IMG/VR virus record: IMGVR_UViG_3300043105_000137
Length of the DNA: 64,000 bases
Strand: one strand, 5' to 3'
Source of the DNA: a virus
Taxonomy: Duplodnaviria > Heunggongvirae > Uroviricota > Caudoviricetes
This document shows, in pieces, positions 2,543 to 56,693 of the stretch. Made by a program: the position numbers and the translations under genes. The notes below the pieces were generated by a model. That model was not told where the DNA came from. It did not search any database and saw only the letters and a program-made list of their open reading frames with translations. Each line of letters opens with the position of its first letter. The stretch's first letter is position 1.

Positions 2543-2563
2543 TTTGTTATGTTTAATATGTAA
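2543..2563 (+). promoter_or_regulatory. Class-2 conserved upstream motif (TTTGTTATGTTTAATATGTAA)
   Basis: This is one of at least 12 near-identical copies in the window. It sits just upstream of the likely true start at 2589. Confidence 0.5.
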
Positions 2564-2588
2564 TTTAATAATTAATACTTATAAAGAT

Positions 2589-3062
2589 ATGGATAATAAA
2601 TTTATAAAGCTCACTTTTGATGACACGAGTATTTCCAAAAAGACTGTAGAAAATCGGACTATTGTATCGGTATGGTCTGGTTTCAAATTCACAAAACTGG
2701 AAGCTGAGTTGGAAAATCTTGGTTTGAAAACACTTCCTGAACCCATTGCAACAATCCTGACTAAGTATGGGTATAAGAGAGATTTCAAGAAGAATATTTG
2801 GAAAGCTAAGTCAACAGGTGTGGCAACTCTTTCTCCTGATGATGAGAACAATGATGTCACAGGTTATCGTATCGCAATGAGTCGAGCTAAACGTAAGGCA
2901 TATATCAAGGCGACTAATTGTCTTAGAGAAATTAGTGGAATTTTTGATGAAGTAAGTGACCTATTCTACTTTTCATCATATCGTCTTGGTCAGTTTGAGA
3001 TTGAAGAAACAGAAGCCATTGAAGATGTAATCGATCATGGTTATTCTGGTGGTAAAAAGTAA
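2589..3062 (+). CDS. Hypothetical protein
   Basis: The track ORF starts at 2523, but that start would place the conserved promoter motif inside the coding sequence. The start was therefore moved to the ATG at 2589 (MDNKFIKL...). Confidence 0.45.
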   Translation: MDNKFIKLTFDDTSISKKTVENRTIVSVWSGFKFTKLEAELENLGLKTLPEPIATILTKYGYKRDFKKNIWKAKSTGVATLSPDDENNDVTGYRIAMSRAKRKAYIKATNCLREISGIFDEVSDLFYFSSYRLGQFEIEETEAIEDVIDHGYSGGKK

Positions 3063-3081
3063 ATCCTAAAATAAAATAAAA

Positions 3082-4224
3082 ATGCAGATATTAGAAAAAA
3101 CAGAGTTAGACTTTTCAGATGTTTTGATTAAGCCTCGTCGTTCCACTATCGCCAGTCGTAAAGATGCAGATATAACACGAGAGTATAAATTCAAATGGTG
3201 TCCTTATACGATTAAAGGAACTGGTATAATGCAGGCTAATATGGGTACAATCGGTAACTTTGATGTGACGAGGAAGATGTTAAAAGTTGGTTTGTTTGCC
3301 TGTCTGCATAAACACCATGAAGTTAATGACCTTATTGACTTCTTCAAGAGTTTGTCTGACGATGAACGAAAACGAACATTTATTTCTATTGGACTAAAAG
3401 ACAATGGTGTTGATAAACTGAAACAACTGAATGAAGAAGTTTTCAGTGGTAAAGACTATAGTATGTCCATTTGTATTGATGTCCCTAATGGTTATATTCC
3501 ACAGGTAAAACAACTGGTCATTGATATTCGTAAGGTATATCCTAATTGTCTTTTGATGGTTGGTAATGTTGTTACTGGTGATATTGTTGAAGACCTTATC
3601 CTTTCGGGAGCTGACATAATCAAAGCTGGAATTGGTGGTGGTGGACAATGTATCACGAGAAAACAAACTGGTGTAGGTCGCCCTCAATTATCAACTATCA
3701 TAGAATGTGCGGATGCGGCTCACCAAGTGGGGGGTATGTGTTGTTCTGATGGTGGAATTACTTGTCCGGGTGATATTGGTAAGGCTTTTGGAGCAGGTGC
3801 GGATTTTATCATGATTGGTAGTTTGTATGCTGGAACAACGGAAGCTGATGGAGAAATAGTTGAAAAGACATACCTCACAAATGAACGAACAACAGAGGTG
3901 GTTAATTATGTCATGGGTGTAGTTAATCATGAAAAAGTATATGAAACCAAAAAGTTCAAGTTGTTCTATGGTATGAGTTCATCACTGGCTCAGGAAAAAT
4001 TTGGTGATGGAAAACGTAAGTATCGAGCCAGTGAAGGCCGTGTTAGTTTGGTACCATATGTAGGTTCAGTTGATGATGTAAATGAGGAATTTCTTGGTGG
4101 ATTGAGAAGTACAATGACATATATAGGAGCAACAAAACTTAAAGATATACCTAAGTGTTGTGTGTTCTATAAAGTGAATAATCAGTTGAACCGTACATAT
4201 GAAGGTTCAACAATAGGATATTAA
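3082..4224 (+). CDS. guaC: GMP reductase (IMPDH/GuaC family)
   Basis: The N-terminus LDFSDVLIKPRRST, the GIGGGGQCITR motif and the segment CSDGGITCPGDIGKAFGAGADFIMIG all match GuaC signature regions. Confidence 0.8.
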   Translation: MQILEKTELDFSDVLIKPRRSTIASRKDADITREYKFKWCPYTIKGTGIMQANMGTIGNFDVTRKMLKVGLFACLHKHHEVNDLIDFFKSLSDDERKRTFISIGLKDNGVDKLKQLNEEVFSGKDYSMSICIDVPNGYIPQVKQLVIDIRKVYPNCLLMVGNVVTGDIVEDLILSGADIIKAGIGGGGQCITRKQTGVGRPQLSTIIECADAAHQVGGMCCSDGGITCPGDIGKAFGAGADFIMIGSLYAGTTEADGEIVEKTYLTNERTTEVVNYVMGVVNHEKVYETKKFKLFYGMSSSLAQEKFGDGKRKYRASEGRVSLVPYVGSVDDVNEEFLGGLRSTMTYIGATKLKDIPKCCVFYKVNNQLNRTYEGSTIGY

Positions 4225-4226
4225 TT

Positions 4227-4448
4227 ATGATGACTTTTGAATTAAACGACGAAGAAGAAAAGGAAGCGTTGGCCTTTATGGAGGAACATAAGAAAGTGTG
4301 TCCTCATTCCTTCGCTAATGGAAACCTCCCCGCAACAGGTGAACATTACTATTATAAGTTCATTCCCGGAGGTCTTGGTTCATCAGTCTTAATCGGATGT
4401 GTTTACTGTAATGTTGAAAAGGACATTACTGATGTTAGTTGTTGGTGA
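4227..4448 (+). CDS. Hypothetical small Cys-containing protein
   Basis: The ORF has an ATGA overlap with the guaC stop. Confidence 0.4.
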   Translation: MMTFELNDEEEKEALAFMEEHKKVCPHSFANGNLPATGEHYYYKFIPGGLGSSVLIGCVYCNVEKDITDVSCW

Positions 4449-4573
4449 TGTATACCTTAGTAAATGTTTATGGTTTAGGTAGTTTTGGGAAGTTTTATGA
4501 TTTAGAGTCAGCGGAGAACTACCTGTTTTCACTTGATGATTGGATTGACTGGATGGTTGAGAAAATTTAACAT

Positions 4574-4604
4574 GAGAGGGGTCGCATGACCTCTCTCTTT
4601 TTTG
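4574..4604 (+). terminator. Rho-independent terminator
   Basis: A GAGAGG...CCTCTC stem-loop is followed by TTTTTT. Confidence 0.55.
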
Positions 4605-4620
4605 TTATGTTTAGGTTATG
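4601..4620 (+). promoter_or_regulatory. Class-2 conserved upstream motif ending in a start codon
   Basis: The sequence TTTGTTATGTTTAGGTTATG has its terminal ATG coinciding with the start of the small ORF at 4618. Confidence 0.45.
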
Positions 4621-4782
4621 AAAAGATATAAGTACAAAATAGTTAGAACCAACAAGGAGGTTTCAGAAGCCCAGTTGAACACACTTGGTAGACAGGGGTG
4701 GGAACTGTGTGGAGTGACCTATGACAATGTATGGGGATTGACATATTACATTAAAAAAGAAATTGAAGAAACGAATGGGTAA
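4618..4782 (+). CDS. Small hypothetical protein (54 aa)
   Basis: The sequence is MKRYKYKIVRTNKEVSEAQLNTLGRQGWELCGVTYDNVWGLTYYIKKEIEETNG. It falls below the 60-aa cutoff of the track. A promoter motif lies immediately upstream. Confidence 0.4.
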   Translation: MKRYKYKIVRTNKEVSEAQLNTLGRQGWELCGVTYDNVWGLTYYIKKEIEETNG

Positions 4783-5362
4783 GATAGTATTTAATTATGG
4801 TTGTATGGGTTCAGGTAAGACATCTAAAATGTTAACCCAATTTGATTCATACAAACGACGAAGAAAAAATCCAATTATTGTAAAACCATGTGTTGACACC
4901 AGAGAAACAACTGGGAATGACACTAAATTCATTGGTTGGGGTGTAACGAAATCACGAATTACGAAAAATGAAGAACCCACATATTATTTTGAAGACCTTA
5001 GAGAATCCTTATCATTACTTGATTTTGGGGTTCTTTTTGTTGATGAAGCTCAGTTTTTGACAAGAGAAGATGTGTTAACTCTATGTGATATTGCCGACAT
5101 TAGAGGTATTGATGTCTTTTGTTATGGTCTAAAAACTGACATTAATGGTGAGTTATTTGAAGGGAGTAAACATTTATTGGCACTTGCTGATGAATTTATT
5201 GAGATTGATACCCCTTGTGAGATTGATAGATGTGATGGAAAAGCTATTTGTCATATTAGATTTGTCAATGGTGAAATCGAATATGGAGGTCCGAGTGTAG
5301 AAATCGAACAAGGTAATGTAACATATAAATCAGTTTGTAGAAAACACTGGCATCATTTGTAA
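4775..5362 (+). CDS. tdk: Thymidine kinase
   Basis: The P-loop is FNYGCMGSGKTS and Walker B is LFVDEAQFL. The C-terminal zinc-ribbon cysteines are present (VCRKHW). The track start at 4763 is a TTG, so the ATG at 4775 is preferred. Confidence 0.85.
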   Translation: MGKIVFNYGCMGSGKTSKMLTQFDSYKRRRKNPIIVKPCVDTRETTGNDTKFIGWGVTKSRITKNEEPTYYFEDLRESLSLLDFGVLFVDEAQFLTREDVLTLCDIADIRGIDVFCYGLKTDINGELFEGSKHLLALADEFIEIDTPCEIDRCDGKAICHIRFVNGEIEYGGPSVEIEQGNVTYKSVCRKHWHHL

Positions 5363-6540: not shown

Positions 6541-6560
6541 TTTGTTATTTTTATAGTGAA
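6541..6560 (+). promoter_or_regulatory. Class-2 conserved upstream motif
   Basis: The sequence TTTGTTATTTTTATAGTGAA lies upstream of the Thg1-like gene. Confidence 0.45.
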
Positions 6561-6577: not shown

Positions 6578-7351
6578 ATGATTTTCCGAACCCTAAAAGA
6601 AAAATGTGAGTATTACAGAAGTCTGACTGATTATCGACTTCTTCCAAATGGTTACATTATGGTTATGATTGATGGTAAGAATTTTTCCACATTAATCAAA
6701 AACAAATTTGAGAAACCATTTGATGAGCAGTTTATTGAGATGATGAATAAAACTGCGAAGTATCTATGTAAGAATATCCAAAATTGTGTAGGTGCTTTTG
6801 TTCAATCAGATGAAATTAGTCTTGTCATTCGAGACACTAATGAAACCTGTGTACCCTTTGATGGTAGAATGTGTAAACTTTTGTCCATCATTCCCTCTAT
6901 TGCAACATCATACTTCACAAAGTTGATGATTGAATATGAGTTGAAACTTGTCCCCAGATTTGACCACATCTTTGAAATGAAAGATTATGTGTTCGACTGT
7001 AAGGTATGGGTTGTTCCTAATGAGAATGATATGTTAGCTTGGTTCTTATACCGTCAGATAGATTGTATTAAGAACTCAAAGAATCAGTTTTGTCAGACAT
7101 ATCTCTCACACAACACCCTGAGAGGACACAATTCAGATGAACAAGTTAAGTTGTGTTTGGAACAGACTGGAAATGATTGGAATTTGGTTTCTGATGATAA
7201 AAAGTTTGGTCGTTTCATCTACAAATCACAAGTAGTTAAAGTAAACCCAGAAGGACAGGAATATACCAGAAGTGTATGGGATATTGTTTCTTATGAGATT
7301 GCTAACAAAGAAAACAGAGAAGACTTAAAAAATAAATGGTTAAATAAATGA
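6578..7351 (+). CDS. Thg1-like protein (tRNA-His guanylyltransferase / 3'-5' nucleotidyltransferase family)
   Basis: The segments MVMIDGKNFSTL and AFVQSDEISLVIRD align with the Thg1 regions VVRLDGRNFHRF and AYGQSDEYSFVF that contain the catalytic carboxylates. Confidence 0.6.
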   Translation: MIFRTLKEKCEYYRSLTDYRLLPNGYIMVMIDGKNFSTLIKNKFEKPFDEQFIEMMNKTAKYLCKNIQNCVGAFVQSDEISLVIRDTNETCVPFDGRMCKLLSIIPSIATSYFTKLMIEYELKLVPRFDHIFEMKDYVFDCKVWVVPNENDMLAWFLYRQIDCIKNSKNQFCQTYLSHNTLRGHNSDEQVKLCLEQTGNDWNLVSDDKKFGRFIYKSQVVKVNPEGQEYTRSVWDIVSYEIANKENREDLKNKWLNK

Positions 7352-9688: not shown

Positions 9689-10051
9689 ATGGAAAAAGAG
9701 TTACCTAACCATTCACTACTAAGAATGGAAGTTCAAAATCTTCATCAGTTTACGATACAACATCTAAATCAATTCAATGATGAGTTGAACCAGATGATTT
9801 CTCAGGAACTTGATCGTTGGATTGAAACAGGATTGAACGAAGAAATTGTTTCAAGTCTGGATAAACATTTGAATGACATGATTAATCAATTAATTCAAGA
9901 ACAGGCTTACAGTTTAATCTCAACTAAAATTTCAGAGGGAGTGAAGAAATATGTTGATGATAAACTTCCGGAGGACAAAGTAAATGAGATTATTGCGAAT
10001 GTGATGGAAGTAAAGTTTCCTTACATTAGTCTAAACAACCAAAAACTTTAA
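9689..10051 (+). CDS. Hypothetical protein
   Basis: A 120-aa ORF in a compact gene array. Confidence 0.45.
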   Translation: MEKELPNHSLLRMEVQNLHQFTIQHLNQFNDELNQMISQELDRWIETGLNEEIVSSLDKHLNDMINQLIQEQAYSLISTKISEGVKKYVDDKLPEDKVNEIIANVMEVKFPYISLNNQKL

Positions 10052-10112
10052 CAAATTTTTAGCACTTAAAATTTGGAGGACTGAAAAAAAACCTGTATCT
10101 TTGTAGTGTAAT
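10048..10112 (+). promoter_or_regulatory. Class-1 promoter cassette (Bacteroidota sigma-A type)
   Basis: An upstream element TTAACAAATTTTTAGCACTTAAAATTTGG is followed by TTTG, a 20-nt spacer, TAtcTTTG, then tagtgtaa. Confidence 0.6.
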
Positions 10113-11218: not shown

Positions 11219-12493
11219 ATGAAACTAACATTCAAAGACATAGAAGATAAAGGACTTCTCTTATATCGTTACATAAGGGGTTCACAGGTCTATGGTACCA
11301 ATGTCGAAACAAGTGACGTTGATGAAGGTGGTATCTATATCGCTCCCTCAAATCAACTTCTTGACCTTGGTTTTGATTACCAGAATGAAATCTGTGATGA
11401 GAAACATGATACCTGTTGGTGGGAGATAGGTAAGTTCATGAGACTACTCCTATCATCTAACCCCACTGTATTGGAAGCCCTGTTCGTTCCTGATGATAAG
11501 GTCTTGTATGAACACCCCATCATTACGAATATCAAAAAGTATCGTGACCAATTCATCACCAAACAATGTTTCATGCCTTTTGGTGGTTATGCTGTGTCTC
11601 AGATTAAAAAGGCTCAGGGACAAGATAAGAAAATTCACTGGGACATTGAGAAGATGGTTAGAAAGACTCCCCTCGATTTTTGTTATACTTTTAAGGGACA
11701 GGGTAGTCAAAACATTCAAACTTGGCTCAGTGAACGAGGTCTTGACCAAAGTAACTGTGGATTGGTAAATGTGCCCAATATGCCTAATATGTTTGATGTG
11801 TTCTATGACTTTGGTCAACACATTGAACTAAATGGTATCACAAAAGAATTTTTCACCGACGAAAAAAATCGTAATGACAAATTCTTGAACTATGTATATA
11901 CAACTTTAACATCTAAATTTGACCAGACCGAAATGAAATGGTCTTGGGTAATGAAAAATCTTTATGAAAAAATTAAAACTCCTTTTGGTAAACACTGCGG
12001 TATCATTTCTAATGTGGGTTCAAGTAATGAAATCCGTTTTTCAGAAACATTAAAAGGTTCTACACCTATTTGTTATATGTCTTACAATGAAAATGGTTAT
12101 AGACAACATTGTAAGAAATATCGTGAGTATGAGGATTGGAAGAAAAACCGTAACAAAGCTCGGTATGAAAACAACCTTGAAGGACTCGAAAAAGAAAACT
12201 CAGCGAAGTTCTATGATGCTAAGAATATGTGTCACTGTTTCCGTCTGATTTCTATGGCGATTGAAGTAGCTAAGGGTGAAGGACTTAAACTTGACCGTAG
12301 AGGAATTGATGCTGATTTTCTCCTTGATGTTAGAAATAGAAAATATACTTATGATGAGTTGATGTCTAAACTAACAGAACTTAAATCTCAAATGGATGAA
12401 GAAATATCTAAATCTGTTATTCCTGATGAGATTTCTGTTGATATGGTAAATGACCTCCTGTTATATGCACGAAATAAATTCAACCAGAAATGA
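11219..12493 (+). CDS. Pol-beta-superfamily nucleotidyltransferase
   Basis: The N-terminus carries GSQVYGTNVETSDVDEGG, a match to the GS-x9-13-DxD nucleotidyltransferase signature. Confidence 0.5.
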   Translation: MKLTFKDIEDKGLLLYRYIRGSQVYGTNVETSDVDEGGIYIAPSNQLLDLGFDYQNEICDEKHDTCWWEIGKFMRLLLSSNPTVLEALFVPDDKVLYEHPIITNIKKYRDQFITKQCFMPFGGYAVSQIKKAQGQDKKIHWDIEKMVRKTPLDFCYTFKGQGSQNIQTWLSERGLDQSNCGLVNVPNMPNMFDVFYDFGQHIELNGITKEFFTDEKNRNDKFLNYVYTTLTSKFDQTEMKWSWVMKNLYEKIKTPFGKHCGIISNVGSSNEIRFSETLKGSTPICYMSYNENGYRQHCKKYREYEDWKKNRNKARYENNLEGLEKENSAKFYDAKNMCHCFRLISMAIEVAKGEGLKLDRRGIDADFLLDVRNRKYTYDELMSKLTELKSQMDEEISKSVIPDEISVDMVNDLLLYARNKFNQK

Positions 12494-24947: not shown

Positions 24948-24967
24948 TTTGTTATATTTAATATGAA
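24948..24967 (+). promoter_or_regulatory. Class-2 conserved upstream motif overlapping a start codon
   Basis: In TTTGTTATATTTAATATGAAT the ATG is the start of the SLT gene. Confidence 0.45.
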
Positions 24968-25472
24968 TCTTCTGCGATTGCAAAGATTTCTATTTATTAT
25001 TTCCCTATTTTTTAATACCGTTTTCACTCTCTATTTTCTCCTTAGACCAACTAACCAAGAAAACACAGTGGAAACGGTTTCTTTAGGTCAAGAAAATAAT
25101 ATAAAGGAATCTGATGACCAAATGTCTGATTGGAATATGTTCACTATGGCTCTGATGAAGGTTGAAAGTGAATATGACTCAACACAGGTATCCTCAAAAG
25201 GTGCAAAAGGTTATTTTCAAATCACTCCAGTCTATGTTAATGAGGTAAATCGAGTTCACAATACAAATTACAGTATGAACGATGTCCTCAGTTTTGACTC
25301 AGCCTATGAAATATTTGACCTTATGCAGAAAGCCCACAACCCGGATTATTCAATGAAAACAGCCATCCAACTACACAATGGTAAATCTTATTGGTATCGG
25401 AAAAGGGTAATGAATGCTTATGAGGATATAAAAAAATATGAAAAATTACGGCGAAAAGTCGTACGAACATAA
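24963..25472 (+). CDS. Lytic transglycosylase (SLT domain), membrane-anchored
   Basis: An N-terminal transmembrane helix is predicted. The segment MKVESEYDSTQVSSKGAKGYFQITP matches the SLT catalytic motif (ES...G.GLMQI). Confidence 0.5.
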   Translation: MNLLRLQRFLFIISLFFNTVFTLYFLLRPTNQENTVETVSLGQENNIKESDDQMSDWNMFTMALMKVESEYDSTQVSSKGAKGYFQITPVYVNEVNRVHNTNYSMNDVLSFDSAYEIFDLMQKAHNPDYSMKTAIQLHNGKSYWYRKRVMNAYEDIKKYEKLRRKVVRT

Positions 25473-25555: not shown

Positions 25556-26674
25556 ATGAAAAAAATTATTATGATGTTGGTGATGGTATTTGCCTCACTT
25601 TCAATGTTTGCCCAACAAACCACAGTTGAGGGTTCTAAATTCTTCGATAACACTTATGTTGGTGTTTCTGTTGGTGGACAAGTTGGTATGAATGATATTA
25701 TTGGTCATTCAAATTGGACAGTAGCTCCTGATGCTAATCTCTATCTTGGTAAATGGTTCACTCCTATCTTTGGTATGGAACTTAATGGTGAAGCAGTATT
25801 CCATGATGGTTTCTCTACACGAAACAAATTCGTAGACGCAAGTTATGTTGGACTGAACGCCCGTCTAAATCTCAACAATATCTTTCACAAATATCGTGGT
25901 GAAAGTGACCGAGTAGAAGTAATCCCCTTCGTTGGTGTTGGTTGGCTTCATGCTTATGGTAATGGTACAGTAGAAGATAAAGGTAATGTTCCTACCGTTC
26001 AAGCAGTTGGTCGTAATGCCTTCGCCACTAAAATGGGTATTGACTTGGCCTTCAATCTTGGTGAAACAAAAGCTTGGGTAATTGATGTTCGACCCACTGT
26101 AATGTATGCCCTTTCAGGTTCTAATTACACTGGTGAACCTTACTACAATGTAAACAAAGCACGTGTTGGTCTTGAAGTTGGTTTCACATATAAGTTTGGA
26201 CATAAAAATTCAAAGGGTGTAACAACTCACAACTTCACAAAAGCTTATACAGTTCGTGAATATGATGAAATGGTAGAACGTCTATCTAATGTAACTCCTG
26301 ATACTGTTGTAGTTACTAATGATGTTGTTCGTGAAGTTGTTCGTGAAGTACCCGTAACAAGTTATGTAGTATCATCTCCTTACTTTACAAAGGGTGAATA
26401 TACTTTGGATCCCACTTCAAATAAAGTCCTTGACACTCTCGCAACTCAAATTAAGAGTGACAACAAAGAATATGTAATCACTGGTTGGGCATCTATCGAA
26501 GGTGAGGAAACTTATAACTCAACACTCTCACTCCATCGTGCAGAAGCTGTTCGTAATGCACTTGTAGAACGTGGTGTACCTACTACTCGTCTGTCTGTGG
26601 TTGCTGGTGGTGCTACTCAGCAATTTGGTTCTGACTACGAAAGTAATCGTACGGTAACTGTTACAAGTAAATAA
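25556..26674 (+). CDS. OmpA-family outer-membrane protein
   Basis: A signal peptide is predicted. The N-terminal region looks beta-barrel-like. The C-terminus LSLHRAEAVRNALVERGVPTTRLSVVAGGATQ...NRTVTV matches the OmpA peptidoglycan-binding signature. Confidence 0.6.
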   Translation: MKKIIMMLVMVFASLSMFAQQTTVEGSKFFDNTYVGVSVGGQVGMNDIIGHSNWTVAPDANLYLGKWFTPIFGMELNGEAVFHDGFSTRNKFVDASYVGLNARLNLNNIFHKYRGESDRVEVIPFVGVGWLHAYGNGTVEDKGNVPTVQAVGRNAFATKMGIDLAFNLGETKAWVIDVRPTVMYALSGSNYTGEPYYNVNKARVGLEVGFTYKFGHKNSKGVTTHNFTKAYTVREYDEMVERLSNVTPDTVVVTNDVVREVVREVPVTSYVVSSPYFTKGEYTLDPTSNKVLDTLATQIKSDNKEYVITGWASIEGEETYNSTLSLHRAEAVRNALVERGVPTTRLSVVAGGATQQFGSDYESNRTVTVTSK

Positions 26675-31490: not shown

Positions 31491-31494
31491 TGTT

Positions 31495-33520: not shown

Positions 33521-35431
33521 ATGGCTTTTCTTCAAAACAAATTTATAGAAGATTATAAAACCGCCTGTCAAATACAAAAACTATATAAACAAATATATAG
33601 AATTTGTTATAAGATGGGCAACTATTATGTACCAAAAGGTAGTAGAATTGTTACTGTCACTTCAGATGATGGTACAACTCGACAAGTATATAGACCCGTA
33701 TATAACAATAGAATAATTGAGACTGATGGGTGGTATGATGGTAATGAAGATGTAAAAATTCACCCAAATGGTGTTAAATCAATATCTTTAACTCAAAATA
33801 CATATCTTACAATATCACAAATTGAAGATTTATATCTGTATAATAATATTATTCTTGCTAGTTATGATAGTACCACACAAAATGTTCCACAATATTTAAA
33901 AACAGGTGAGCTAAATGAGAAATTCAAATCTATATCTGTCGAAATACAATCATTATTATTCACATTGATTGATTCCGAAGCTCTAACGCCTTTTAGAACA
34001 TCATACACATATTATCCCGTAATGGATGCCAGATACCCCCATGTTCACTGGGCTTATGTTGCGATGAAAAATAATATGAATAAGTCACAAAGACGAATAT
34101 TCTATAACACTTGTATCGGTAAAACACTTCAAGAATATAAACGATTTACCACACACACATTTCCCAGAATATATAAACAACCTTGGGATAGTGGAACTTG
34201 GACACATACAGAGGATGAAACAAATTTGACCGATAGAGATAGAGTAAAAAAGAAAATGTATAAACAATGGTCAAGAACAGATTCAAGTGCTAACTATCTA
34301 ATTCTTAAAGCTGAGGAAGTATTAGAGAAATATGGTTGGCCTGAAGATGACCTTATTAAAACAAGTGAAGTCCCTGTTAGAATTGTTTTCTTTACAGGTG
34401 CGGGTATGAGTGAGGAAAATGGTATCTATACATATAAGAGTGAGGAAGAAGGTAATTTGTGGTATGAGAACCCTATTGATATGATAATGACAAAATCCGG
34501 GTGGAATTCTGACCCTGTTTTCTTGAATAGATTTTTTAATGAATTGAGAGCCAGTTACATTAATAAAAATACCATGCATCTTGGTTATCAAATTATAAAT
34601 AAATTCATTAATGATACTATTGGTGAAGGAACAAATAAACATAATACCTTTGATGTGAAAATCATTACTCAGAATATTGATGACCTACATGACAAAGCAT
34701 TATGTGACTATTTTTTTAGATATTATAACACGTCATATGAACCCCCGATATATGGAATTAGTGATAGTGGTTTTTATAAATATATGAAATTTACCAATAT
34801 TGGAAAATCTATGACAGCGAAAGAATTCATAGATGAACACCTTATACATCTTCATGGTAATTTAATGATTATGTGCAATGAAGATGATGTCGATAATACA
34901 AACTACCATGCTGACTTATCATATTGGACAAAAAGTGTTTCCGAAGATGATAACACAACAACAACAACATTGGCAGGAGTTTCAAAATATAAAAAAGTAA
35001 ATGGTAAGTATGTACAATCCGGAGTTGTAACAATAGACACAACAGAAAGTCATAAAGATTGTGGATTACCAACAGATGCTAAGGTTTGGACTTATTTCCC
35101 AAAAGTCAAACAGACATCAAATGGTAATGCAAAGATGAGACCTTGGATTACTCTATATCACGAAACCGTAAATAGAATGACAGAAGCTATCGAATTGGTT
35201 AGGTCTTGTGACATATTCGTAATGGTGGGAACTTCATTAGAAACTTTCCCCGCAGCCAATTTAATGACTTATGTTCCATCGACTACACCTATCATATATA
35301 TAGACCCAAATCCAAATACTGAAATGATAGAAAAACTAAAGATGACCAGTAGAACAGAAATAGTTAAAACATATGCACCAAATGGTCTTTCTCATGTGTT
35401 AGATGTATATCTTATGGGTTTGAAAATATAG
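33521..35431 (+). CDS. SIR2 (sirtuin-like) domain protein fused to an N-terminal domain of about 280 aa with no recognisable motifs
   Basis: Four sirtuin motifs appear in order: FFTGAGMSEENGI (GAGxS), TQNIDDLH (QNIDxLH), HLHGN (catalytic His) and VMVGTSLETFPAANL (GTSL..P). The canonical Zn-binding cysteine pairs are absent. Confidence 0.7.
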   Translation: MAFLQNKFIEDYKTACQIQKLYKQIYRICYKMGNYYVPKGSRIVTVTSDDGTTRQVYRPVYNNRIIETDGWYDGNEDVKIHPNGVKSISLTQNTYLTISQIEDLYLYNNIILASYDSTTQNVPQYLKTGELNEKFKSISVEIQSLLFTLIDSEALTPFRTSYTYYPVMDARYPHVHWAYVAMKNNMNKSQRRIFYNTCIGKTLQEYKRFTTHTFPRIYKQPWDSGTWTHTEDETNLTDRDRVKKKMYKQWSRTDSSANYLILKAEEVLEKYGWPEDDLIKTSEVPVRIVFFTGAGMSEENGIYTYKSEEEGNLWYENPIDMIMTKSGWNSDPVFLNRFFNELRASYINKNTMHLGYQIINKFINDTIGEGTNKHNTFDVKIITQNIDDLHDKALCDYFFRYYNTSYEPPIYGISDSGFYKYMKFTNIGKSMTAKEFIDEHLIHLHGNLMIMCNEDDVDNTNYHADLSYWTKSVSEDDNTTTTTLAGVSKYKKVNGKYVQSGVVTIDTTESHKDCGLPTDAKVWTYFPKVKQTSNGNAKMRPWITLYHETVNRMTEAIELVRSCDIFVMVGTSLETFPAANLMTYVPSTTPIIYIDPNPNTEMIEKLKMTSRTEIVKTYAPNGLSHVLDVYLMGLKI

Positions 35432-35608: not shown

Positions 35609-35630
35609 TTTGTTATCTTTATCATGTAAT
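35609..35630 (+). promoter_or_regulatory. Class-2 conserved motif
   Basis: The sequence is TTTGTTATCTTTATCATGTAA. A related copy, TTTGTTATATCATATAATAT, lies at 35513-35538. Confidence 0.4.
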
Positions 35631-35645: not shown

Positions 35646-36224
35646 ATGATATTAGGAAGTCATAAATCATTAAGTTATATCACACCTAAGAAATGGTGGA
35701 TGTGGTTTCTTACTCCAATGTATAAACACCAAAGTAAGGACTTAGGACAACAACTCAAAGAAGGTATTAGAGTTCTTGATATTAATGTCCGATTTGATGA
35801 TCATGGTAATGTATCTGTCTGTGATGGGATATATGAAACCAAAAGTTATAATCCCAGAGTATTCACACTACACACTATTAATAAGATAGACAACTTTGGT
35901 GATAAAGATACCGATTATTACATCATTCTCACCCTCGATACAAAAAAGGCGTCATTAATACAAGAAGTGGAATTCATTAAACTATGTAAGGAATTCACAA
36001 GTAGATATTTTAGAAATAATGTTCACTTGCTTGGTTGTAGACGTAAGTTTGATAATGAGAAGGTATATGTTGGTTCACCTGATTTCACTGATATGTCTAT
36101 TATCTCAGCAACAGACCAAAAAGATTCTCGATGGTATGAGAAACTTATCCCTTGGTTCTATGCGAAACGAAAAAACGAAACTATTGAACCCACCTCAAAT
36201 GTAACCCTTTTGGACTTCATTTGA
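35646..36224 (+). CDS. PI-PLC X-domain-like phosphodiesterase (tentative)
   Basis: The segments ILGSHKSLSY and IRVLDINVRFDDHGN resemble the His-containing catalytic segments of the PLC-like phosphodiesterase fold. Confidence 0.3.
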   Translation: MILGSHKSLSYITPKKWWMWFLTPMYKHQSKDLGQQLKEGIRVLDINVRFDDHGNVSVCDGIYETKSYNPRVFTLHTINKIDNFGDKDTDYYIILTLDTKKASLIQEVEFIKLCKEFTSRYFRNNVHLLGCRRKFDNEKVYVGSPDFTDMSIISATDQKDSRWYEKLIPWFYAKRKNETIEPTSNVTLLDFI

Positions 36225-36863: not shown

Positions 36864-37103
36864 AGTTTTTTGAATTTGTTATATATAAATTGTAAAGAAC
36901 CTCACCGCAATTCATATCAAGAATTTATAAATGAAGTGTAATTATCTTAGGTTCTTGTTAATACAAAAATTAAAAGGTTATGGTACACATTAGATCACCT
37001 TTTGGAAGAGACATTCCTTCAATCTGACCGAGCTCTAAGATTGAAGAACCCCAAAGAGACGTCTTTGGTCTGGGACTTTTTCGCGAATAGTCCCTTCATG
37101 GAG

Positions 37104-37188: not shown

Positions 37189-37272
37189 CTAAGAATTTTG
37201 TTGAAATGCTTTTTTATTACATTTTTTTCATATTACTATATTTTTAATATTATATAAGTTTTTGATTTAATT

Positions 37273-37292
37273 ATCATGTCGTGAGACATGAC
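37273..37292 (+). repeat. GTGA-tetraloop hairpin repeat, copy a
   Basis: The structure is tcatgtc-GTGA-gacatga. Confidence 0.5.
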
Positions 37293-37351
37293 CATAACAA
37301 ATGAGTTTTAATTGATATTTTTAAAGTTGTTTAAAATTTACACATTAAATA

Positions 37352-37379
37352 ATCATCATGTCGTGAGATAGACTGATTA
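37352..37379 (+). repeat. GTGA-tetraloop hairpin repeat, copy b (degenerate 3' arm)
   Basis: The sequence taatcatcatgtc-GTGA-gatagactgatta abuts the 5' end of the tRNA at 37380. Confidence 0.45.
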
Positions 37380-37452
37380 AACTCCGTAGCTCAGTTGGTA
37401 GAGCGTCTGGTTAAACACTGGAAGGTCGTGGGTTCGAGTCCCATCGGAGTTA
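37380..37452 (+). tRNA. tRNA with a non-canonical anticodon loop UUAAACA (nominal anticodon AAA with C37)
   Basis: The acceptor stem aactccg/cggagtt, the D-arm gctcagttggtagagc and the T-arm gtggg-ttcgagt-cccat are all canonical. The anticodon stem tctgg/ctgga contains two G-U pairs. Confidence 0.55.
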
Positions 37453-37471
37453 CTTTTTCATTTGATGCTTT

Positions 37472-37487
37472 TATGTCGTGAGACATA
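37472..37487 (+). repeat. GTGA-tetraloop hairpin repeat, copy c
   Basis: The structure is tatgtc-GTGA-gacata. Confidence 0.5.
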
Positions 37488-37583
37488 ACCATAGTAAGTG
37501 TTTTTTTTTAGTACATTATTTTTTTTTCATTGTATATAAGTTTTTGATTTATAAATAAATTATTTATTAAGTGAGAGAGAGAA

Positions 37584-37612
37584 AATCATCATGTCGTGAG
37601 ACATGATTGATT
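37584..37612 (+). repeat. GTGA-tetraloop hairpin repeat, copy d
   Basis: The sequence aatcatcatgtc-GTGA-gacatgattgatt ends 1-2 nt before tRNA-Lys. Confidence 0.5.
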
Positions 37613-37613
37613 A

Positions 37614-37686
37614 GGCTTCGTAGCTCAGTTGGTAGAGCAACTGACTCTTAATCAGTGGGTCGTGGGTTCGAGCCCCACCGGAGTCA
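37614..37686 (+). tRNA. tRNA-Lys (anticodon CTT)
   Basis: The acceptor stem ggcttcg/cggagtc contains G-U pairs. The anticodon stem-loop is actga-cucuuaa-tcagt and the T-arm gtggg-ttcgagc-cccac. Confidence 0.75.
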
Positions 37687-37747
37687 CAGAGTTTTTTACT
37701 AATTTTTTTAAATTATTCTTATAGAATTTAAATTTTTACACACAAAT

Positions 37748-37776
37748 AATCATCATGTCGTGAGATAGCATTGATT
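37748..37776 (+). repeat. GTGA-tetraloop hairpin repeat, copy e
   Basis: The sequence aatcatcatgtc-GTGA-gatagcattgatt abuts the tRNA at 37777. Confidence 0.45.
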
Positions 37777-37851
37777 GACTTCGTACGTCTCAGCTGGTAG
37801 AGCGTCTGGTTAAACACTGGAAGGTCGTGGGTTCGATCCCCACCGAAGTCA
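37777..37851 (+). tRNA. Second tRNA with the UUAAACA anticodon loop, with an irregular D-arm
   Basis: The acceptor stem gacttcg/cgaagtc pairs perfectly. The anticodon arm is identical to the one at 37380. The D-region carries 3 extra nt (tacgtctcagctggtagagc) and the T-arm is gtggg-ttcgatc-cccac. Confidence 0.45.
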
Positions 37852-37891
37852 CAAATTAAATTTATTGTAAAATTTCTAAAACATTAAAATC

Positions 37892-38734: not shown

Positions 38735-38797
38735 CAAACTCTAACCCATTAACAGATTCGGCAAGTTAGCTCAGTCACCTACTAAGTTAGAGTTTGT
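38735..38797 (+). repeat. Long hairpin (12-bp stem, 40-nt loop)
   Basis: The arms are acaaactctaac...gttagagtttgt. The 3' arm overlaps a class-2 motif. Confidence 0.45.
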
Positions 38798-38813
38798 TAT
38801 TTTTAGAGTATGA
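38793..38813 (+). promoter_or_regulatory. Class-2 conserved motif ending at the start codon
   Basis: In TTTGTTATTTTTAGAGTATG the ATG is the start of the ORF at 38810. Confidence 0.45.
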
Positions 38814-39448
38814 AAGATATAAATTTTAAGTTAGTCTTTTCAGGAAAGTTATCTTCTTGGACTGACGTTTTTAATATAATCGAACAAGCTGAAGATAACC
38901 ATGATGTTCGTTTCCTAATTAAAGTGGATGGAACAACATATAGTTATTTTTGGTGGAATGAATATACTAAATCTTGGAATATGTTTTTTTCGTATTTCAA
39001 GAATTATGAACTGAAATCAACAACAAAATGGCCTTATTATTGGTGGCCTGATGCCGTAGATGTTTATATGGTAACTGACCCGACGATTTTTATTCGTGAA
39101 CTTCAAAACGATTTACGACATGAGTCTTTCCAAAAATTAACTTATCCTGACTCTAAACTGAGTGTAATGGTGGATATGATTAAACCTATACTTGGCTCAG
39201 TGGTTGAAGTTAAAAATGAGAAAGTATTGTTGTTGGGATTGTCTTATACATTTGATGACTATTATTACTACTACCTGACACAAGATAATAAAATCGGTTT
39301 CACATCTTCGGTAGGAAAAATAGTTCAACATTATGACCAAACACGAGCTGAGTTATTGAAGGAGGACATTGAAACAAAACAACTTGTCCAGAACCTTAGA
39401 TGGGAACATTTCAAAGACGCTCCGGAAATAGAAATAATACACGTTTAA
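38810..39448 (+). CDS. Hypothetical protein
   Basis: A 212-aa Trp/Tyr-rich ORF. Confidence 0.45.
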   Translation: MKDINFKLVFSGKLSSWTDVFNIIEQAEDNHDVRFLIKVDGTTYSYFWWNEYTKSWNMFFSYFKNYELKSTTKWPYYWWPDAVDVYMVTDPTIFIRELQNDLRHESFQKLTYPDSKLSVMVDMIKPILGSVVEVKNEKVLLLGLSYTFDDYYYYYLTQDNKIGFTSSVGKIVQHYDQTRAELLKEDIETKQLVQNLRWEHFKDAPEIEIIHV

Positions 39449-39450
39449 TT

Positions 39451-40311
39451 ATGATAACATTTGTTTTAATTATCTTAGCAATTTTAATACTTCCTTATAT
39501 CCTTCATTTTTTGGGATTGGAAATATCAGAGTATTACAGAAAGAAATATAATGATCGTGAACTGGTCAAGGAATTCAAAAACTATCGAGGTTATATTGGA
39601 TTTTATAACAACCCCAGTCTTATGATTTATTATACACATCATGGAGTTTATACCGACTGTAAATGGGCTCACAAAATTCTAATCTATTTTGGTGGTTGTG
39701 TCTTGTGTTGGCAATGGGGTAATGACTTCAATGAGAATACAGGTCTTGACTATGCTTCTATTTCATACTCTTGGGGTTGGGATTCTATCAATGGTGAAAA
39801 ATGGTGGACTGATTTTAGATGGCGTAACCGTACTTTTTCTAACCCTTTCAAAGCAACCCACTATGATAACTCTTGGATAATCGACTTTAATAATAAGACG
39901 TTAGTTGAGAAAAGACAATTAGATGACATTAATGATTATCCTCTTGTTGATGTTAGATTGAATACCACCTACCGTATGAAGAATGACACAGTTCAAGATG
40001 TTTCCCGTATCCGTTGGTGGATTGAACAATGGGAATGGTCAGTGCCCTTCCTCAATAAAATAGGTCTTGGTAATTATTGTAAGAAAATAAATGTTGACCT
40101 CGAATTCCAATCTGACACTGAACTTGGCGTCAATCGGGATTCTTGGAAGGGTGGTGTAATGGGTGCCACTGTTAGAATTAGTGATGAACCCGAACTTCTC
40201 AAACTTTATCTCGACATCGTTAAACATCAGAAATTGGAGAAGATACCTCTACTCAGAACGGCTATCAAAAACCGTATCGACTATTTTATGAATGAAGAAA
40301 AAAAATATTGA
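39451..40311 (+). CDS. Membrane-anchored hypothetical protein
   Basis: The start was chosen at MITFVLIILAILILPYILHFLG, a transmembrane helix. The track start at 39400 overlaps the upstream gene. Confidence 0.4.
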   Translation: MITFVLIILAILILPYILHFLGLEISEYYRKKYNDRELVKEFKNYRGYIGFYNNPSLMIYYTHHGVYTDCKWAHKILIYFGGCVLCWQWGNDFNENTGLDYASISYSWGWDSINGEKWWTDFRWRNRTFSNPFKATHYDNSWIIDFNNKTLVEKRQLDDINDYPLVDVRLNTTYRMKNDTVQDVSRIRWWIEQWEWSVPFLNKIGLGNYCKKINVDLEFQSDTELGVNRDSWKGGVMGATVRISDEPELLKLYLDIVKHQKLEKIPLLRTAIKNRIDYFMNEEKKY

Positions 40312-40446: not shown

Positions 40447-40466
40447 TTTGTTATGTTTATAGTAAA
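40447..40466 (+). promoter_or_regulatory. Class-2 conserved motif
   Basis: The sequence is TTTGTTATGTTTATAGTAAA. Confidence 0.45.
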
Positions 40467-40487: not shown

Positions 40488-40649
40488 ATGGACAATACTC
40501 AAGAAAAAATTAGCGACATCATAGACCAACTAATGAAAGAGATGGGTATTCATTCTCTTGAAAACTTGGCTAACACAGATTTCGCTGATAAACTATATGA
40601 CAGATTAATTGAAAAAAATATTATCCCTAAAACCGTTGATAAATTATGA
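40488..40649 (+). CDS. Small hypothetical protein (53 aa)
   Basis: The sequence begins MDNTQEKISDIIDQLMKEMG... and has an ATGA overlap with the ORF at 40646. Confidence 0.3.
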   Translation: MDNTQEKISDIIDQLMKEMGIHSLENLANTDFADKLYDRLIEKNIIPKTVDKL

Positions 40650-54875: not shown

Positions 54876-55335
54876 AACAGTAACAACCATCAAACAGTCA
54901 TCAATTCTTCTCGACTGTGGAATTAATCCTGACTCAGCTGACCATCATTGGATATTCAAAGACATGGAGGGAAACTTCATTACGAAAAACGAATATGAAG
55001 AAAGATTTGAAAATAATGAGTATGGTCTACAACGTGAACTACTACCGAACTCAGACACGGATCCAGACATCATGTATCCTGCTTGGTCTCTCTGGTCACT
55101 GATAGATGCACTGAGAATCAACCCCAGTAAATATGAGTTGACCATAATCGTGTACCAAAATCATGAAGTTGACATTACTCTGACACTTAAAGAAACTCTG
55201 GAAGTCATTTTCCATAAATCTGGTGATCCTTTAGATGTTCTGGTTAAGTTAGTTGTCTTGGCCAAGTTTTCAACCTACTGTGAGGGACAACCCACTCTAC
55301 AGGAATTTGTTGATGGATGGGACTCAGCTCAGTAA
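54862..55335 (+). CDS. Hypothetical protein
   Basis: A 157-aa ORF. Confidence 0.45.
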   Translation: MTSNKTVTTIKQSSILLDCGINPDSADHHWIFKDMEGNFITKNEYEERFENNEYGLQRELLPNSDTDPDIMYPAWSLWSLIDALRINPSKYELTIIVYQNHEVDITLTLKETLEVIFHKSGDPLDVLVKLVVLAKFSTYCEGQPTLQEFVDGWDSAQ

Positions 55336-55372
55336 ACATAGATAGTTAAACAATATAAAAATTAGTTAAATT

Positions 55373-55627
55373 ATGATGCCTGATTTTATTACAATTTACC
55401 GTTACGACAAGAAAAAATACTACACCATCTCTATCTTCAAACATAAGGTAGGAGGTAAGTATTCATTCCTCAACATTACTAAGCAACATATCTGCCCTTG
55501 TGAGTTTGACACTTATGAGGATGCTATGAATGAGTTGAAAGAAAAGGAGCAGAAAGGTGAACTCAAAATCATGTCTACTTGGCAACCAGAAGTCCCAGTT
55601 GAAGATGGAATTGATAATGAATGGTAA
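55373..55627 (+). CDS. Hypothetical protein
   Basis: An 84-aa ORF. Confidence 0.4.
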   Translation: MMPDFITIYRYDKKKYYTISIFKHKVGGKYSFLNITKQHICPCEFDTYEDAMNELKEKEQKGELKIMSTWQPEVPVEDGIDNEW

Positions 55628-55880
55628 AACTCTACACCTTATCCTGAAATCCAAATGGTATGAGATGATTGAGTCAGGAGTGAAAAGGGAGGAATACCGA
55701 GATGTGAAACCCTATTGGACAAAACGGTTAGACGATACGAATTACGATACTGTTTGTTTCCATAAAGGTTACACATCAGAAACCTTGACTTTTCAGATCA
55801 CTGACATCTCCATCAGAACCGGAAATCCAGAATGGGGAGCTCAACCAGATGTCCAATATTATGTAATCAGTTTCCAATGA
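55617..55880 (+). CDS. ASCH/DUF3850-like small protein (tentative)
   Basis: The start is at the ATGA overlap. The segment HLILKSKWYEMIESGVKREEYRDVKPYW resembles the ASCH-like beta-barrel signature. Confidence 0.35.
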   Translation: MNGKTLHLILKSKWYEMIESGVKREEYRDVKPYWTKRLDDTNYDTVCFHKGYTSETLTFQITDISIRTGNPEWGAQPDVQYYVISFQ

Positions 55881-56380
55881 TTCCCAGTAAAGAAACCATC
55901 GACCGTCTGATAAATTCTGTCCCAGACTCAGCCATCGAAATATTTGGTGAACTTAATGACAACTATAATAAGATTTCCAGTTGTCGTTGTGCTGACTTCT
56001 TCCTTCGTGGATTTGAAGATGATGAGGTAGTAGATGCCAATGAATGGTTGGTCACTTGTGTGATTGACCGGATGATACTGAAATCTGATGAAGGGGTGGA
56101 ACGATGGATGGAACAGGTTATCAGGGAAAAACAGGACAAAGGTTATGGGGACTTCACATTCATCAGGAAACGCATGCGGAAATACATGGGGAATGAAAAG
56201 TTTTGGATTATTACTGTGATCCTGGACATTGTTTCTGAGATAACCGAACCACATGACTTCCCTAATGTATGCAGTTGGTTGTTATTCCTCAACTACTATA
56301 ATATCTTGGATAAAATTAACGACGAACGAAAGTACGAAAATGAAAACAACCATACTGAAACGACTGAGAAAGGAAGCTAA
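55832..56380 (+). CDS. Hypothetical protein
   Basis: A 182-aa ORF. Confidence 0.4.
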   Translation: MGSSTRCPILCNQFPMIPSKETIDRLINSVPDSAIEIFGELNDNYNKISSCRCADFFLRGFEDDEVVDANEWLVTCVIDRMILKSDEGVERWMEQVIREKQDKGYGDFTFIRKRMRKYMGNEKFWIITVILDIVSEITEPHDFPNVCSWLLFLNYYNILDKINDERKYENENNHTETTEKGS

Positions 56381-56669
56381 GAAAAATGTAAAGTTAGTTC
56401 CTATCTCCGGTAACATCTATGACCCTCAACCTCAGTTTTGTGTCCGGATAAGATATAAGAATAAGAAATATTACCTTTCCAAAGAAATGAAATGGACAAG
56501 GGACTGTTTCGACCGATTCGACTTCTTTGAAATAGGAGCGGCTGTATTTTTGAATGAAGGTCGGAGGTTATATATATTAGAGTATATTGAAGACCTACGT
56601 GACGAAAGACGAAATGAGGAAAACAAAAAAATAAGAAAAAATATTATCAAAAAGTTGACATCTCTCTAA
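56340..56669 (+). CDS. Hypothetical basic protein
   Basis: The start was moved to the internal ATG (MKTTILKRLRKEAKK) to reduce overlap. The track starts at 56253. Confidence 0.35.
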   Translation: MKTTILKRLRKEAKKNVKLVPISGNIYDPQPQFCVRIRYKNKKYYLSKEMKWTRDCFDRFDFFEIGAAVFLNEGRRLYILEYIEDLRDERRNEENKKIRKNIIKKLTSL

Positions 56670-56672
56670 TTT

Positions 56673-56693
56673 TTTGTTATTATTATAATGTAA
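56673..56693 (+). promoter_or_regulatory. Class-2 conserved motif
   Basis: The sequence is TTTGTTATTATTATAATGTAA. Confidence 0.4.

Follow-up and report, generated by a model that had tools for sequence, protein, structure and literature searches.

The window and its phage

A 64,000-nucleotide stretch of DNA from a Caudoviricetes phage (IMG/VR record IMGVR_UViG_3300043105_000137), referred to here as the window, was analyzed for a short repeated element, M2, that resembles a promoter of Bacteroidota without its -33 box, and for a second, longer element, M1. The window has a G+C content of 34% and a coding fraction of about 86%. Its credible genes all lie on the + strand, and it holds seven tRNA genes; tRNAs were the only matches in an Rfam scan. 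Because proteins of the window are also encoded on public contigs of up to 351,880 bp, the window is taken to come from a very large phage. Flanking sequence was added from two further loci of this phage, with 0 mismatches to the window in a base-by-base comparison across an 11-kb overlap, so that 83 kb of the ~352-kb genome could be read.

Genes annotated in these 83 kb include functions in nucleotide metabolism and DNA (IMPDH, thymidine kinase, a Dam-type methylase and a Dda-like helicase), RNA-related functions (Thg1 and an RlaP-type nucleotidyltransferase), Sir2-domain, Acb3-like and SLT-domain proteins, and homing-endonuclease-like genes, although the majority of genes are small and have no known family. 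A nucleotide search with an 8-kb stretch of the window returned 0 matches among GenBank phages. The nearest named protein relatives are found in the crAss-like phage cr50_1 (Dda-like helicase, 34%) and in Lak megaphages (RlaP-like protein, 40–42%). The 50 kb of Lak-A1 examined contain neither M2 nor M1, however, and the phage was therefore assigned to neither group. Sites of the Escherichia coli sigma-70 type are not enriched in the window (72 found, 88 expected), and this, together with the canonical M1 promoters described below, supports a Bacteroidota host.

M2 is a directional element with a -7-like box

The repetition of M2 had been pointed out in an earlier note made from the sequence alone, and it is real. 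The full pattern TTTGTTATNTTTANNNTG has seven exact matches, all on the + strand, where shuffled sequences give an expectation of 0.00, and with up to two mismatches there are 18 matches compared with 3.3 expected. The 13-mer core (TTTGTTATnTTTA/GTTATnTTTA) is present 11 times on the + strand of the window and 0 times on the - strand. Allowing one or two mismatches adds copies at 36875, 56673 and 62089. Fourteen copies in the window are convincing, and all of them are intergenic or at the very start of a gene. Across the 83 kb, 21 copies and 17 core copies were counted, and the positional statistics of M2 given below refer to these two sets. The positions listed in the earlier note are correct with two exceptions: the copy given as 25474 starts at 25478, and the related copy given as 35513 is a partial one at 35516 (TTTGTTATATCAT) without the TTTA half. 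Two copies were absent from that list, at 36875 (one mismatch, 5' of a tRNA cluster) and at 62089, and two doubtful look-alikes, at 28301 and 17827, fall within genes.

Bayley et al. 2000 and Vingadassalom et al. 2005 are said to have described the promoters of the Bacteroidota primary sigma factor (sigma-A/sigma-ABfr), with a -7 box TAnnTTTG and with or without a -33 TTTG. The M2 box, TATnTTTA, agrees with TAnnTTTG at seven of eight defining positions, and the final G is replaced by A in 17/17 core copies; the last box base is A or T, never G, in all 21 copies. The box is preceded by a TTTG extension, and every copy has the TTTG-T-TA geometry that, at the level of sequence, defines an extended -10 promoter. 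The -33 TTTG that lies 17–21 nt 5' of the -7 box in Bacteroidota sigma-A promoters is not a feature of M2: it is found at the correct spacing in 1 of the 21 copies, equal to the background of 4%, and the information content 5' of -17 is about 0.1–0.7 bits. The earlier description of a -7-like box lacking an upstream TTTG therefore stands.

Strong hairpins lie directly 5' of 5 of the 21 copies, with about one expected, and one of them, before the copy at 4601, has a predicted energy of -19.5 kcal/mol. This position fits a restart of transcription past terminators. The single strand, the intergenic placement, the frequent location 3' of terminator hairpins and the distance of 20–30 nt between many copies and a start codon all agree with the promoter behaviour that had been proposed for M2. 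The exact consensus of 18 bases was absent from the literature searched, where a query with the sequence itself brought up irrelevant papers only.

M1 is a second class that shares the 3' half of its layout with M2

M1 follows the pattern TTTGG-N18-TA(A/T)CTTTG-TAGTG, with 15 copies compared to one on the other strand of the window, and it reads as a canonical -33 TTTG/-7 TAnnTTTG promoter of Bacteroidota. In eight copies an extra block, TTAACAAATTTTTAGCAC, ends about 7 nt 5' of the -33 TTTGG (8 matches, 0.35 expected), which makes M1 a long three-block cassette (as at 10048–10108). Several copies stand in tandem with a spacing of about 100 bp (22900/23002; 36252/36353/36454; 58819/58919).

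In an alignment, M2 matches the 3' half of M1 base for base. M1 consists of an upstream part ending in CTG, the box TAACTTTG, the four nucleotides TAGT, then G and then TAA, and M2 consists of TTTGT, the box TATATTTA, one of ATAT, TAGT or GAGT, and then G or A. Both classes thus have a box followed by three nucleotides, a T and a purine. The last box base of M1 is G in 18/18 copies of the 83 kb. A G at this position of M2 is found in 0/17 core copies in this phage and in 1/11 in close relatives. The two classes are interleaved along the window rather than segregated. Units headed by M2 include the IMPDH unit, thymidine kinase, the Dam methylase, Thg1, the Dda-like helicase and a tRNA cluster, and M1 mostly heads small genes of no known function.

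Predicted start sites and leaders

In Flavobacterium psychrophilum the sigma-A box occupies -12 to -5, and adding five to the box end gives the tabulated start in the start-site table of that species (PMC9723704). In an excerpt of the Bacteroides thetaiotaomicron map, 15 primary start sites with a recognisable box begin 2–6 nt past it, mostly 5–6 (PMC7366714). A T followed by a purine is also a general bacterial start element (PMC12641261). In M2, the T at position 4 past the box is invariant, and position 5 is a purine in 21/21 copies. On the basis of the host box-to-start geometry and the T-purine start element, we infer that M2 transcripts start at the purine 5 nt past the box. With this predicted +1 as reference, TTTG has its TG at -15/-14, a single base separating it from T-12 A-11.

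Called start codons begin with the predicted +1 A at 4618 and 38810 in the window and at 6558, 9651 and 19322 in a syntenic relative (L167), and in contig L378 this A belongs to an ATG that opens a 68-amino-acid (aa) open reading frame (ORF) taken from an ORF scan, not a gene call. M1-type promoters likewise place a predicted +1 A at an ATG (L168, 9751; L291, 2120). Start codons, with one scanned ORF start among them, are found exactly at the predicted +1 A in five genomes. The genes at 4618 and 38810 would thus be read from leaderless mRNAs, and the earlier suggestion that some M2 transcripts are leaderless or nearly so is upheld as a prediction. Such mRNAs are rare in the phylum: about 5.5% are leaderless in F. 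psychrophilum, and in B. thetaiotaomicron about 3.7% of 5' untranslated regions are shorter than 10 nt. The 15 B. thetaiotaomicron start sites include a leaderless example, BT_0074, with TTTG-CAGT-A(+1)TG (PMC7366714). Other predicted M2 leaders measure 20–29 nt, compared with host medians of 24–32 nt.

The ATG at the end of the motif had been said to be the annotated start codon at four copies. This is so at 4601 and 38793, where the motif ends on the A of the ATG and the start agrees with the call on public contigs of this phage. At 32432 the ATG sits 2 nt past the motif, and at 24948 it opens the longest ORF, but the public gene call begins at 25068; the ATG, at 24963, is probably outside the transcript.

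As also noted earlier, the motif is followed by ATG-TAA at 2543, 25478, 30817, 35609 and 56673. This feature is not specific to M2, since xTG-TAA also follows 14/15 M1 copies in the window and 17/18 in the 83 kb, the exception being 57930, which reads GAG-TAA. G-TAA is found four bases past the M1 box in 18/18 copies of the 83 kb, and GTAA lies at the predicted +1 in 15/15 window copies; with one of these reading GAG-TAA, the shared GTAA points to a preferred initial transcribed sequence, GUAA, and not to a mini-ORF. Where an M2 copy has ATATG-TAA, transcription is predicted to begin at the G, which would leave the start-stop as such out of the transcript.

These start-stops raise the possibility that M2 acts at the RNA level, as a translation-initiation element in which a 5'-terminal AUG-UAA loads ribosomes without a Shine-Dalgarno sequence, or as a processing site. 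Initiation 3 nt past the box would give an AUGUAA 5' end, starts 2–3 nt past the box do exist in B. thetaiotaomicron, and Shine-Dalgarno-led initiation is absent from Bacteroidota (PMC6847099), all of which would suit this explanation, as do the five start-stop copies and the xTG-TAA after nearly all M1 copies. However, positions 2–3 past the box are not a conserved pyrimidine-purine, and it is positions 4–5 that form the invariant T-purine start element (PMC12641261); an ATG with a stop right after it is missing from 7 of the 14 convincing copies in the window; and conservation is strongest in the upstream part, TTTGTTAT, which would be untranscribed. With one M1 copy reading GAG-TAA as well, an RNA-level role, including the translation-initiation element contemplated in the earlier note, is extremely unlikely.

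An operator for a DNA-binding regulator, overlapping promoters by chance, would account for the unusually tight conservation across 13–18 bp, and the commonest M2 variant does contain a near-palindrome, ATATTTAATAT. Yet this symmetry is gone in the functional-looking variants TTTAGGTTA and TTTATAGTG, and M2 has no conserved dyad, on which ground both an operator and an RNA structure were rejected. The strict direction of the copies, the alignment of M2 with the -7 box and start region of M1, and the fixed distance to the leaderless ATGs also speak against an operator, and at most copies no separate promoter is visible beside M2. We therefore regard a regulator-binding element, which had been raised as another option, as very unlikely.

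Conservation of M2 among relatives of the phage

A search with the Thg1-like protein returned more than 100 protein clusters (53–66% identity), encoded on contigs as long as 473 kb. Among viral contigs, single-protein searches gave no relatives for Thg1 and, for the OmpA-like protein, 28%-identical relatives only, without the motifs. Two relatives are syntenic with the window, L167 (369-kb contig, G+C content 0.26) and L168 (397-kb contig, 0.33). A gene of 157–159 aa located 5' of IMPDH has M2 upstream in all three genomes, at a distance of 27–28 nt from the 159-aa ortholog in L167 and L168. Similarly, M2 precedes a small DUF4177-like gene 5' of thymidine kinase in all three; this gene is predicted to be leaderless in the window phage and in L167 and to have a 12-nt leader in L168. 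An ortholog of 81–84 aa is preceded by M2 in L167 and by an M1-type promoter in L168, with a leaderless mRNA predicted in both genomes, and the classes would therefore be interchangeable, with the A of the ATG kept 5 nt past the box. Further leaderless cases are predicted behind M1 in L291 and behind M2 in L378.

In other family members M2 is found before gp32-like, RecA-like, FKBP and IMPDH genes, and two Thg1 relatives, L169 (473-kb contig) and L290, have no M2. No matches to sigma, polymerase, AsiA or MotA families were present among the called genes of the 83 kb and of about 60 kb of relatives. As a separate observation, the IMPDH-family gene is intact in the window, whereas in L167 and L168 it is split into two such genes with a NUMOD3 homing-endonuclease-like gene between them; the first of the two parts has, in addition, a Hint-domain (intein-like) match.

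M2 outside the phage family

Scans of genomes and metagenomes for the 18-mer listed at least 120 matches, mostly chance occurrences in AT-rich DNA, and only recurrent or multi-copy contexts were used. In IMG/VR the exact 18-mer gave one match per stretch, and the 13-mer core was counted afterwards in those loci. Contigs with no relation to this phage carry 2–7 copies of the core, all on one strand. One small phage (L009), which encodes a tyrosine integrase with a Bacteroidota-type arm-binding domain, small and large terminase and portal, has four core copies, one of them before the small terminase gene; a second small phage (L006), with a Terminase_3-type large subunit, has five. By comparison, 1.09 Mb of generic Bacteroidota phage loci contain only six core copies. 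The M1 pattern is non-specific in IMG/VR, and many Bacteroidota phages are among the matches listed. In two unrelated metagenome contigs (L320 and L400), M2-type promoters are arrayed in tandem in groups of three to four, 78–90 bp apart, in repeated units 5' of small genes.

Among the matches listed for bacterial genomes, exact 18-mers are mostly chance matches in AT-rich DNA. At six Bacteroidales mobile-element loci, however, the 18-mer is the sole long invariant block in otherwise diverged DNA. In five of the six, a conserved leader that contains a hairpin, (A/G)GGTTAAG..TTGGAC..GTCCAA, comes after the 18-mer, and where an ORF was found, these elements lie 5' of an HTH_17/MerR-like gene of 87–111 aa. 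The arrangement is suggestive of conserved regulatory DNA in a mobile element. Flavobacterium loci were dropped as proof of selective conservation because they are too closely related.

Genome-wide start-site maps of Bacteroidota (PMC7366714, PMC9723704) allow a comparison with host promoters. In uninfected B. thetaiotaomicron, TTTGTTATTTTTA lies directly 5' of the BT_0542 primary start site (PMC7366714), and A-ending boxes are found at the mapped start sites of BT_0135, BT_0542 and BT_0769. In the start-site tables of F. psychrophilum and B. thetaiotaomicron, several genes have TTGTTAT(C/A)TTTG where the promoter lies, and TGTTATnTTTG is likewise present at mapped promoters of the hosts. With the same 5' extension, G outnumbers A at -5 by 7 to 0 in the F. 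psychrophilum table and by about 10 to 3 in the B. thetaiotaomicron table. The B. thetaiotaomicron promoter motif 'PM2' was rejected as an equivalent of M2, since the -10 and -30 elements of PM2 are absent from M2.

M2 as a probable compact sigma-A promoter

Taken together, we consider it probable, though by no means certain, that M2 is a compact promoter of the Bacteroidota primary sigma factor that functions without a -33 box. The start site, polymerase, strength and timing of M2 proposed here are predictions from sequence. The layout would be T-17 T-16 T-15 G-14 T-13, T-12 A-11 T-10 n T-8 T-7 T-6 A-5, n n n T-1 R+1, with TATnTTTA as a variant of the host -7 box TAnnTTTG. The TTTG 5' of the box would place a TG at -15/-14, the 'extended -10' position of E. 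coli, and could offset the missing -33 contact. Transcription would begin at the invariant purine 5 nt past the box; a +1 A followed by TG would give a leaderless mRNA, whereas a +1 G of ATATG would leave ATG-TAA untranscribed and give a leader of about 20–30 nt. M2, along with the stronger-looking three-block M1, may divide a run of early or accessory genes, all in one direction, into short units of transcription that often restart right after terminators. Thus, M2 appears to be a tightly conserved form of the -7-box promoter known from Bacteroidota, one that is independent of -33 and combines an extended-type TG with A at -5.

Several features of host promoters are consistent with this assignment. 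The eight-base M2 box begins with TA and has TTT at the same positions as sigma-A promoters, the predicted box-to-start distance is about 5 nt, and mapped host promoters include some with a T-rich, TG-containing 5' extension such as TTGTTATCTTTG. Promoters without a -33 box are the majority class in F. psychrophilum, where start sites without it number 808 (SM1) and 110 (SM3) and those with it 177; these 177, of about 1,100 sigma-A promoters, are the strongest, and the -33 box is reported to be dispensable (PMC9723704). A leaderless mRNA of the same geometry also exists in a host (BT_0074).

Extended -10 (TGn) promoters of the E. coli sigma-70 type need no upstream hexamer. M2 resembles them in its TG one base 5' of T-12 A-11, in the lack of an upstream hexamer and in its compact size of about 20 bp. 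In contrast, its sigma factor and box consensus differ, and the contact between sigma and TG is a prediction in Bacteroidota.

Some observations weigh against a simple host promoter. The last box base of M2 core copies is invariably A, where M1 has G and where most host promoters with the same 5' extension also have G. The TTTGT extension and the T at -10 are nearly invariant, far tighter than in host logos. In BT_0542 and BT_0769, two B. thetaiotaomicron examples, the mapped start lies 2 nt, not 5 nt, past an A-ending box. The loci outside the family were found by searching with the phage's own 18-mer, which biases them towards identity. Finally, a simple host promoter would not lead one to expect that 'no -33 box' and 'A at -5' go together so strictly, and this coupling could reflect a separate recognition mode.

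These points bear on a different explanation, that M2 is a phage-specific temporal class (for example middle), read by a phage sigma-like factor or by host polymerase with -33 recognition switched off by a phage protein, in the manner of T4 AsiA. The A at -5 and the TTTG extension would then be the discriminator, and M1 would be the early class. The strict dichotomy fits this well, with a -33 box and G at -5 in 18/18 M1 copies and, in the 21 M2 copies, A or T at -5 and no -33 box above background, as does the retention of promoter class at two orthologous genes over three genomes. M2 units also lean towards nucleotide-metabolism, replication and tRNA functions (gp32-like and RecA-like in relatives), which resembles the early/middle split of T4. 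However, the same motif is present in small temperate phages, in Bacteroidales mobile elements and in front of bacterial genes, and the exact core precedes a mapped primary start site in uninfected B. thetaiotaomicron, which argues against the modified polymerase or alternative sigma that the earlier note had envisaged. In addition, one ortholog swaps M2 for M1 in sister genomes, M1 and M2 are interleaved, and the phage sigma sought in that context was not seen: no sigma or polymerase gene was found in 83 kb of the ~352-kb genome, and the called genes of these 83 kb and of about 60 kb of relatives gave no match to sigma, AsiA, MotA or polymerase families. A phage-specific temporal class is therefore rather unlikely. 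The suggestion that M1 and M2 are kinetically or temporally distinct is likewise rather unlikely; in that case the combined lack of a -33 box, TTTG extension and A at -5 would free M2 from sigma region 4 and from upstream contacts, and M2 would remain or become active once a phage protein has shut off the early M1 class.

For M2 as a sigma-A promoter, host polymerase is the simplest reader, because the element is found in temperate phages, in mobile elements and before a mapped host start site, and the host holoenzyme probably reads it unaided, with no need for a sigma factor specific to the phage.

Comparison with promoters of other phages

T4 has early promoters of the sigma-70 type, middle promoters with a MotA box at -30 and late promoters, TATAAATA, read by gp55, and in T4-like phages promoter-plus-stem-loop cassettes flank small early genes. 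The window phage is similar in having two stereotyped, interleaved promoter classes in a one-directional block of small genes, one class without an upstream element, and in its frequent terminator-promoter junctions; it also shares homologies with T4 (a Dda-like helicase, T4_Y16D and, in relatives, gp32-like and RecA-like proteins). Unlike T4 middle promoters, M2 has no conserved element near -30, and no MotA or AsiA matches occur among the called genes of the 83 kb. Unlike T4 late promoters, M2 has a different box; TATAAATA itself is found four times on the + strand and once on the - strand, two of these intergenic, without enrichment, and no gp55-like match was found in 83 kb of the ~352-kb genome. 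M2 also differs from the T4 classes in being found outside this phage group.

Middle and late promoters of the crAss-like phage phi14:2 have an extended three-block motif with -35-like and -10-like parts (bioRxiv 10.1101/2020.03.07.982082). As in phi14:2, phage promoters of a Bacteroidota host would be read by host polymerase and also lie 5' of tRNA genes. The three-block description, however, fits M1 with TTAACAAATTTTTAGCAC and not M2, and the longest contig of this phage, at 351,880 bp, is unlike crAss-like phages.

Individual copies and other features of the window

The M2 and M1 copies and other features are listed in Table 1. The gene at 4618 has weak DUF4177 similarity. For the copy at 62089, the predicted +1 gives a candidate leaderless start only (62106–62762), as the public gene call uses an upstream ATG at 62028.

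The region 3' of the tandem M2 pair spans about 590 nt without an ORF of at least 50 aa. It is relatively G+C-rich, closes with terminator-like hairpins (31400–31429), has no Rfam match and shows no similarity in the relatives fetched; it may be a phage non-coding RNA or a long leader. In the tRNA cluster, a small hairpin repeat, (C)ATGTCGTGAGACATG, is present in five copies, three of which sit 22–23 nt 5' of a tRNA gene, and these repeats may be processing signals. The third tRNA of this cluster (37777–37851) was identified by Rfam only and missed by ARAGORN. A G+C-richer, seemingly structured non-coding stretch without an Rfam match lies 3' of tRNA-Ser. Another region, 1.2 kb without + strand genes, has a C-rich part followed by a G-rich part with GCTAATTTTGGGGTATTTTT-like repeats and is the sole region with small - strand genes in public gene calls; it could be a module boundary or an origin-like region. 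The window also encodes a set of tRNA/RNA-related and anti-defence-like genes (Thg1, RlaP nucleotidyltransferase, a 636-aa Sir2-domain protein and an Acb3-like protein), and SmpB and a DHH phosphoesterase are encoded just outside it (L164, 18511–19961).

Table 1 Coordinates of M2 and M1 copies and of other features (window positions unless a contig is named).
Feature	Position	Strand	Associated genes and predictions
M2 TTTGTTATGTTTAATATG	2543–2560	+	predicted +1 G2560; first gene 3' is 2589–3062 (157 aa), 29-nt leader
M2 TTTGTTATGTTTAGGTTA	4601–4618	+	predicted +1 A4618 = A of start codon, gene 4618–4782 (54 aa), predicted leaderless
M2 TTTGTTATTTTTATAGTG	6541–6558	+	predicted +1 G6558; Thg1-like gene 6578–7351, 20-nt leader; hairpin upstream
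M2 TTTGTTATATTTAATATG	24948–24965	+	predicted +1 G24965; SLT-domain gene called 25068–25472; hairpin upstream
M2 TTTGTTATATTTAATATG, then TAA	25478–25495	+	predicted +1 G25495; OmpA-domain gene 25556–26674
M2, first of tandem pair 64 bp apart	30817–30834	+	~590 nt without an ORF of at least 50 aa lie 3'
M2, second of tandem pair	30881–30898	+	
M2 TTTGTTATCTTTATAGTA	32432–32449	+	predicted +1 A32449; gene 32451–32744 (T4_Y16D family), 2-nt leader
M2 TTTGTTATCTTTATCATG	35609–35626	+	PI-PLC-X-like gene 35646–36224, 20-nt leader
Degenerate M2 (box TATATATA)	36875–36892	+	heads tRNA cluster 37380–37851
M2 TTTGTTATTTTTAGAGTA	38793–38810	+	predicted +1 A38810 = A of called start, gene 38810–39448 (212 aa); predicted leaderless
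M2 TTTGTTATGTTTATAGTA	40447–40464	+	gene 40488–40649, 24-nt leader
Variant M2 (box TATTATTA)	56673–56690	+	HNH/DUF723 endonuclease-like gene 56773–57885
Variant M2 (box TATGTTTT)	62089–62106	+	predicted +1 A62106 = A of in-frame ATG
M1, example	10072–10108	+	reads as canonical -33/-7 Bacteroidota promoter
M1, other 14 starts	15662, 22900, 23002, 23393, 27034, 36252, 36353, 36454, 44193, 48880, 51773, 57930, 58819, 58919		
M2-type arrays, L320	~297–450, 5137–5315		reverse strand orientation
M2-type arrays, L400	476–630, 9379–9566		
Bacteroidales loci with invariant 18-mer	L189, L195, L225, L279, L284, L286		genome contigs
tRNA/RNA-related and anti-defence-like genes	6578–7351, 11219–12493, 33521–35431, 39400–40311		
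IMPDH-family gene, intact	3082–4224		
Two IMPDH-family genes, L167	645–3280		
Two IMPDH-family genes, L168	955–3599		
Hairpin repeats of tRNA cluster (37258–37860)	37276, 37358, 37473, 37591, 37755		
Non-coding region 3' of tandem M2 pair	30899–31494		
Non-coding stretch 3' of tRNA-Ser	1907–2314		
Region without + strand genes	60800–62027		

Significance

The two classes and their predicted start provide a promoter grammar for a large uncultured family of 350–470 kb Bacteroidota phages, and this grammar improves gene-start calls, for example at 62106 and 25068. M2 flags conserved, predicted leaderless mRNAs, which are rare in Bacteroidota, and the split between A and G at -5 offers a handle on how Bacteroidota sigma reads the 3' end of the -7 box. 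As a compact 18-bp element common to phages, mobile elements and host genes, M2 is a possible portable promoter for Bacteroides and Flavobacterium engineering. If the two classes do prove to be split in time, M1 and M2 would represent a Bacteroidota analogue of the early-to-middle switch of T4, one that is also exploited by small temperate phages and mobile elements.

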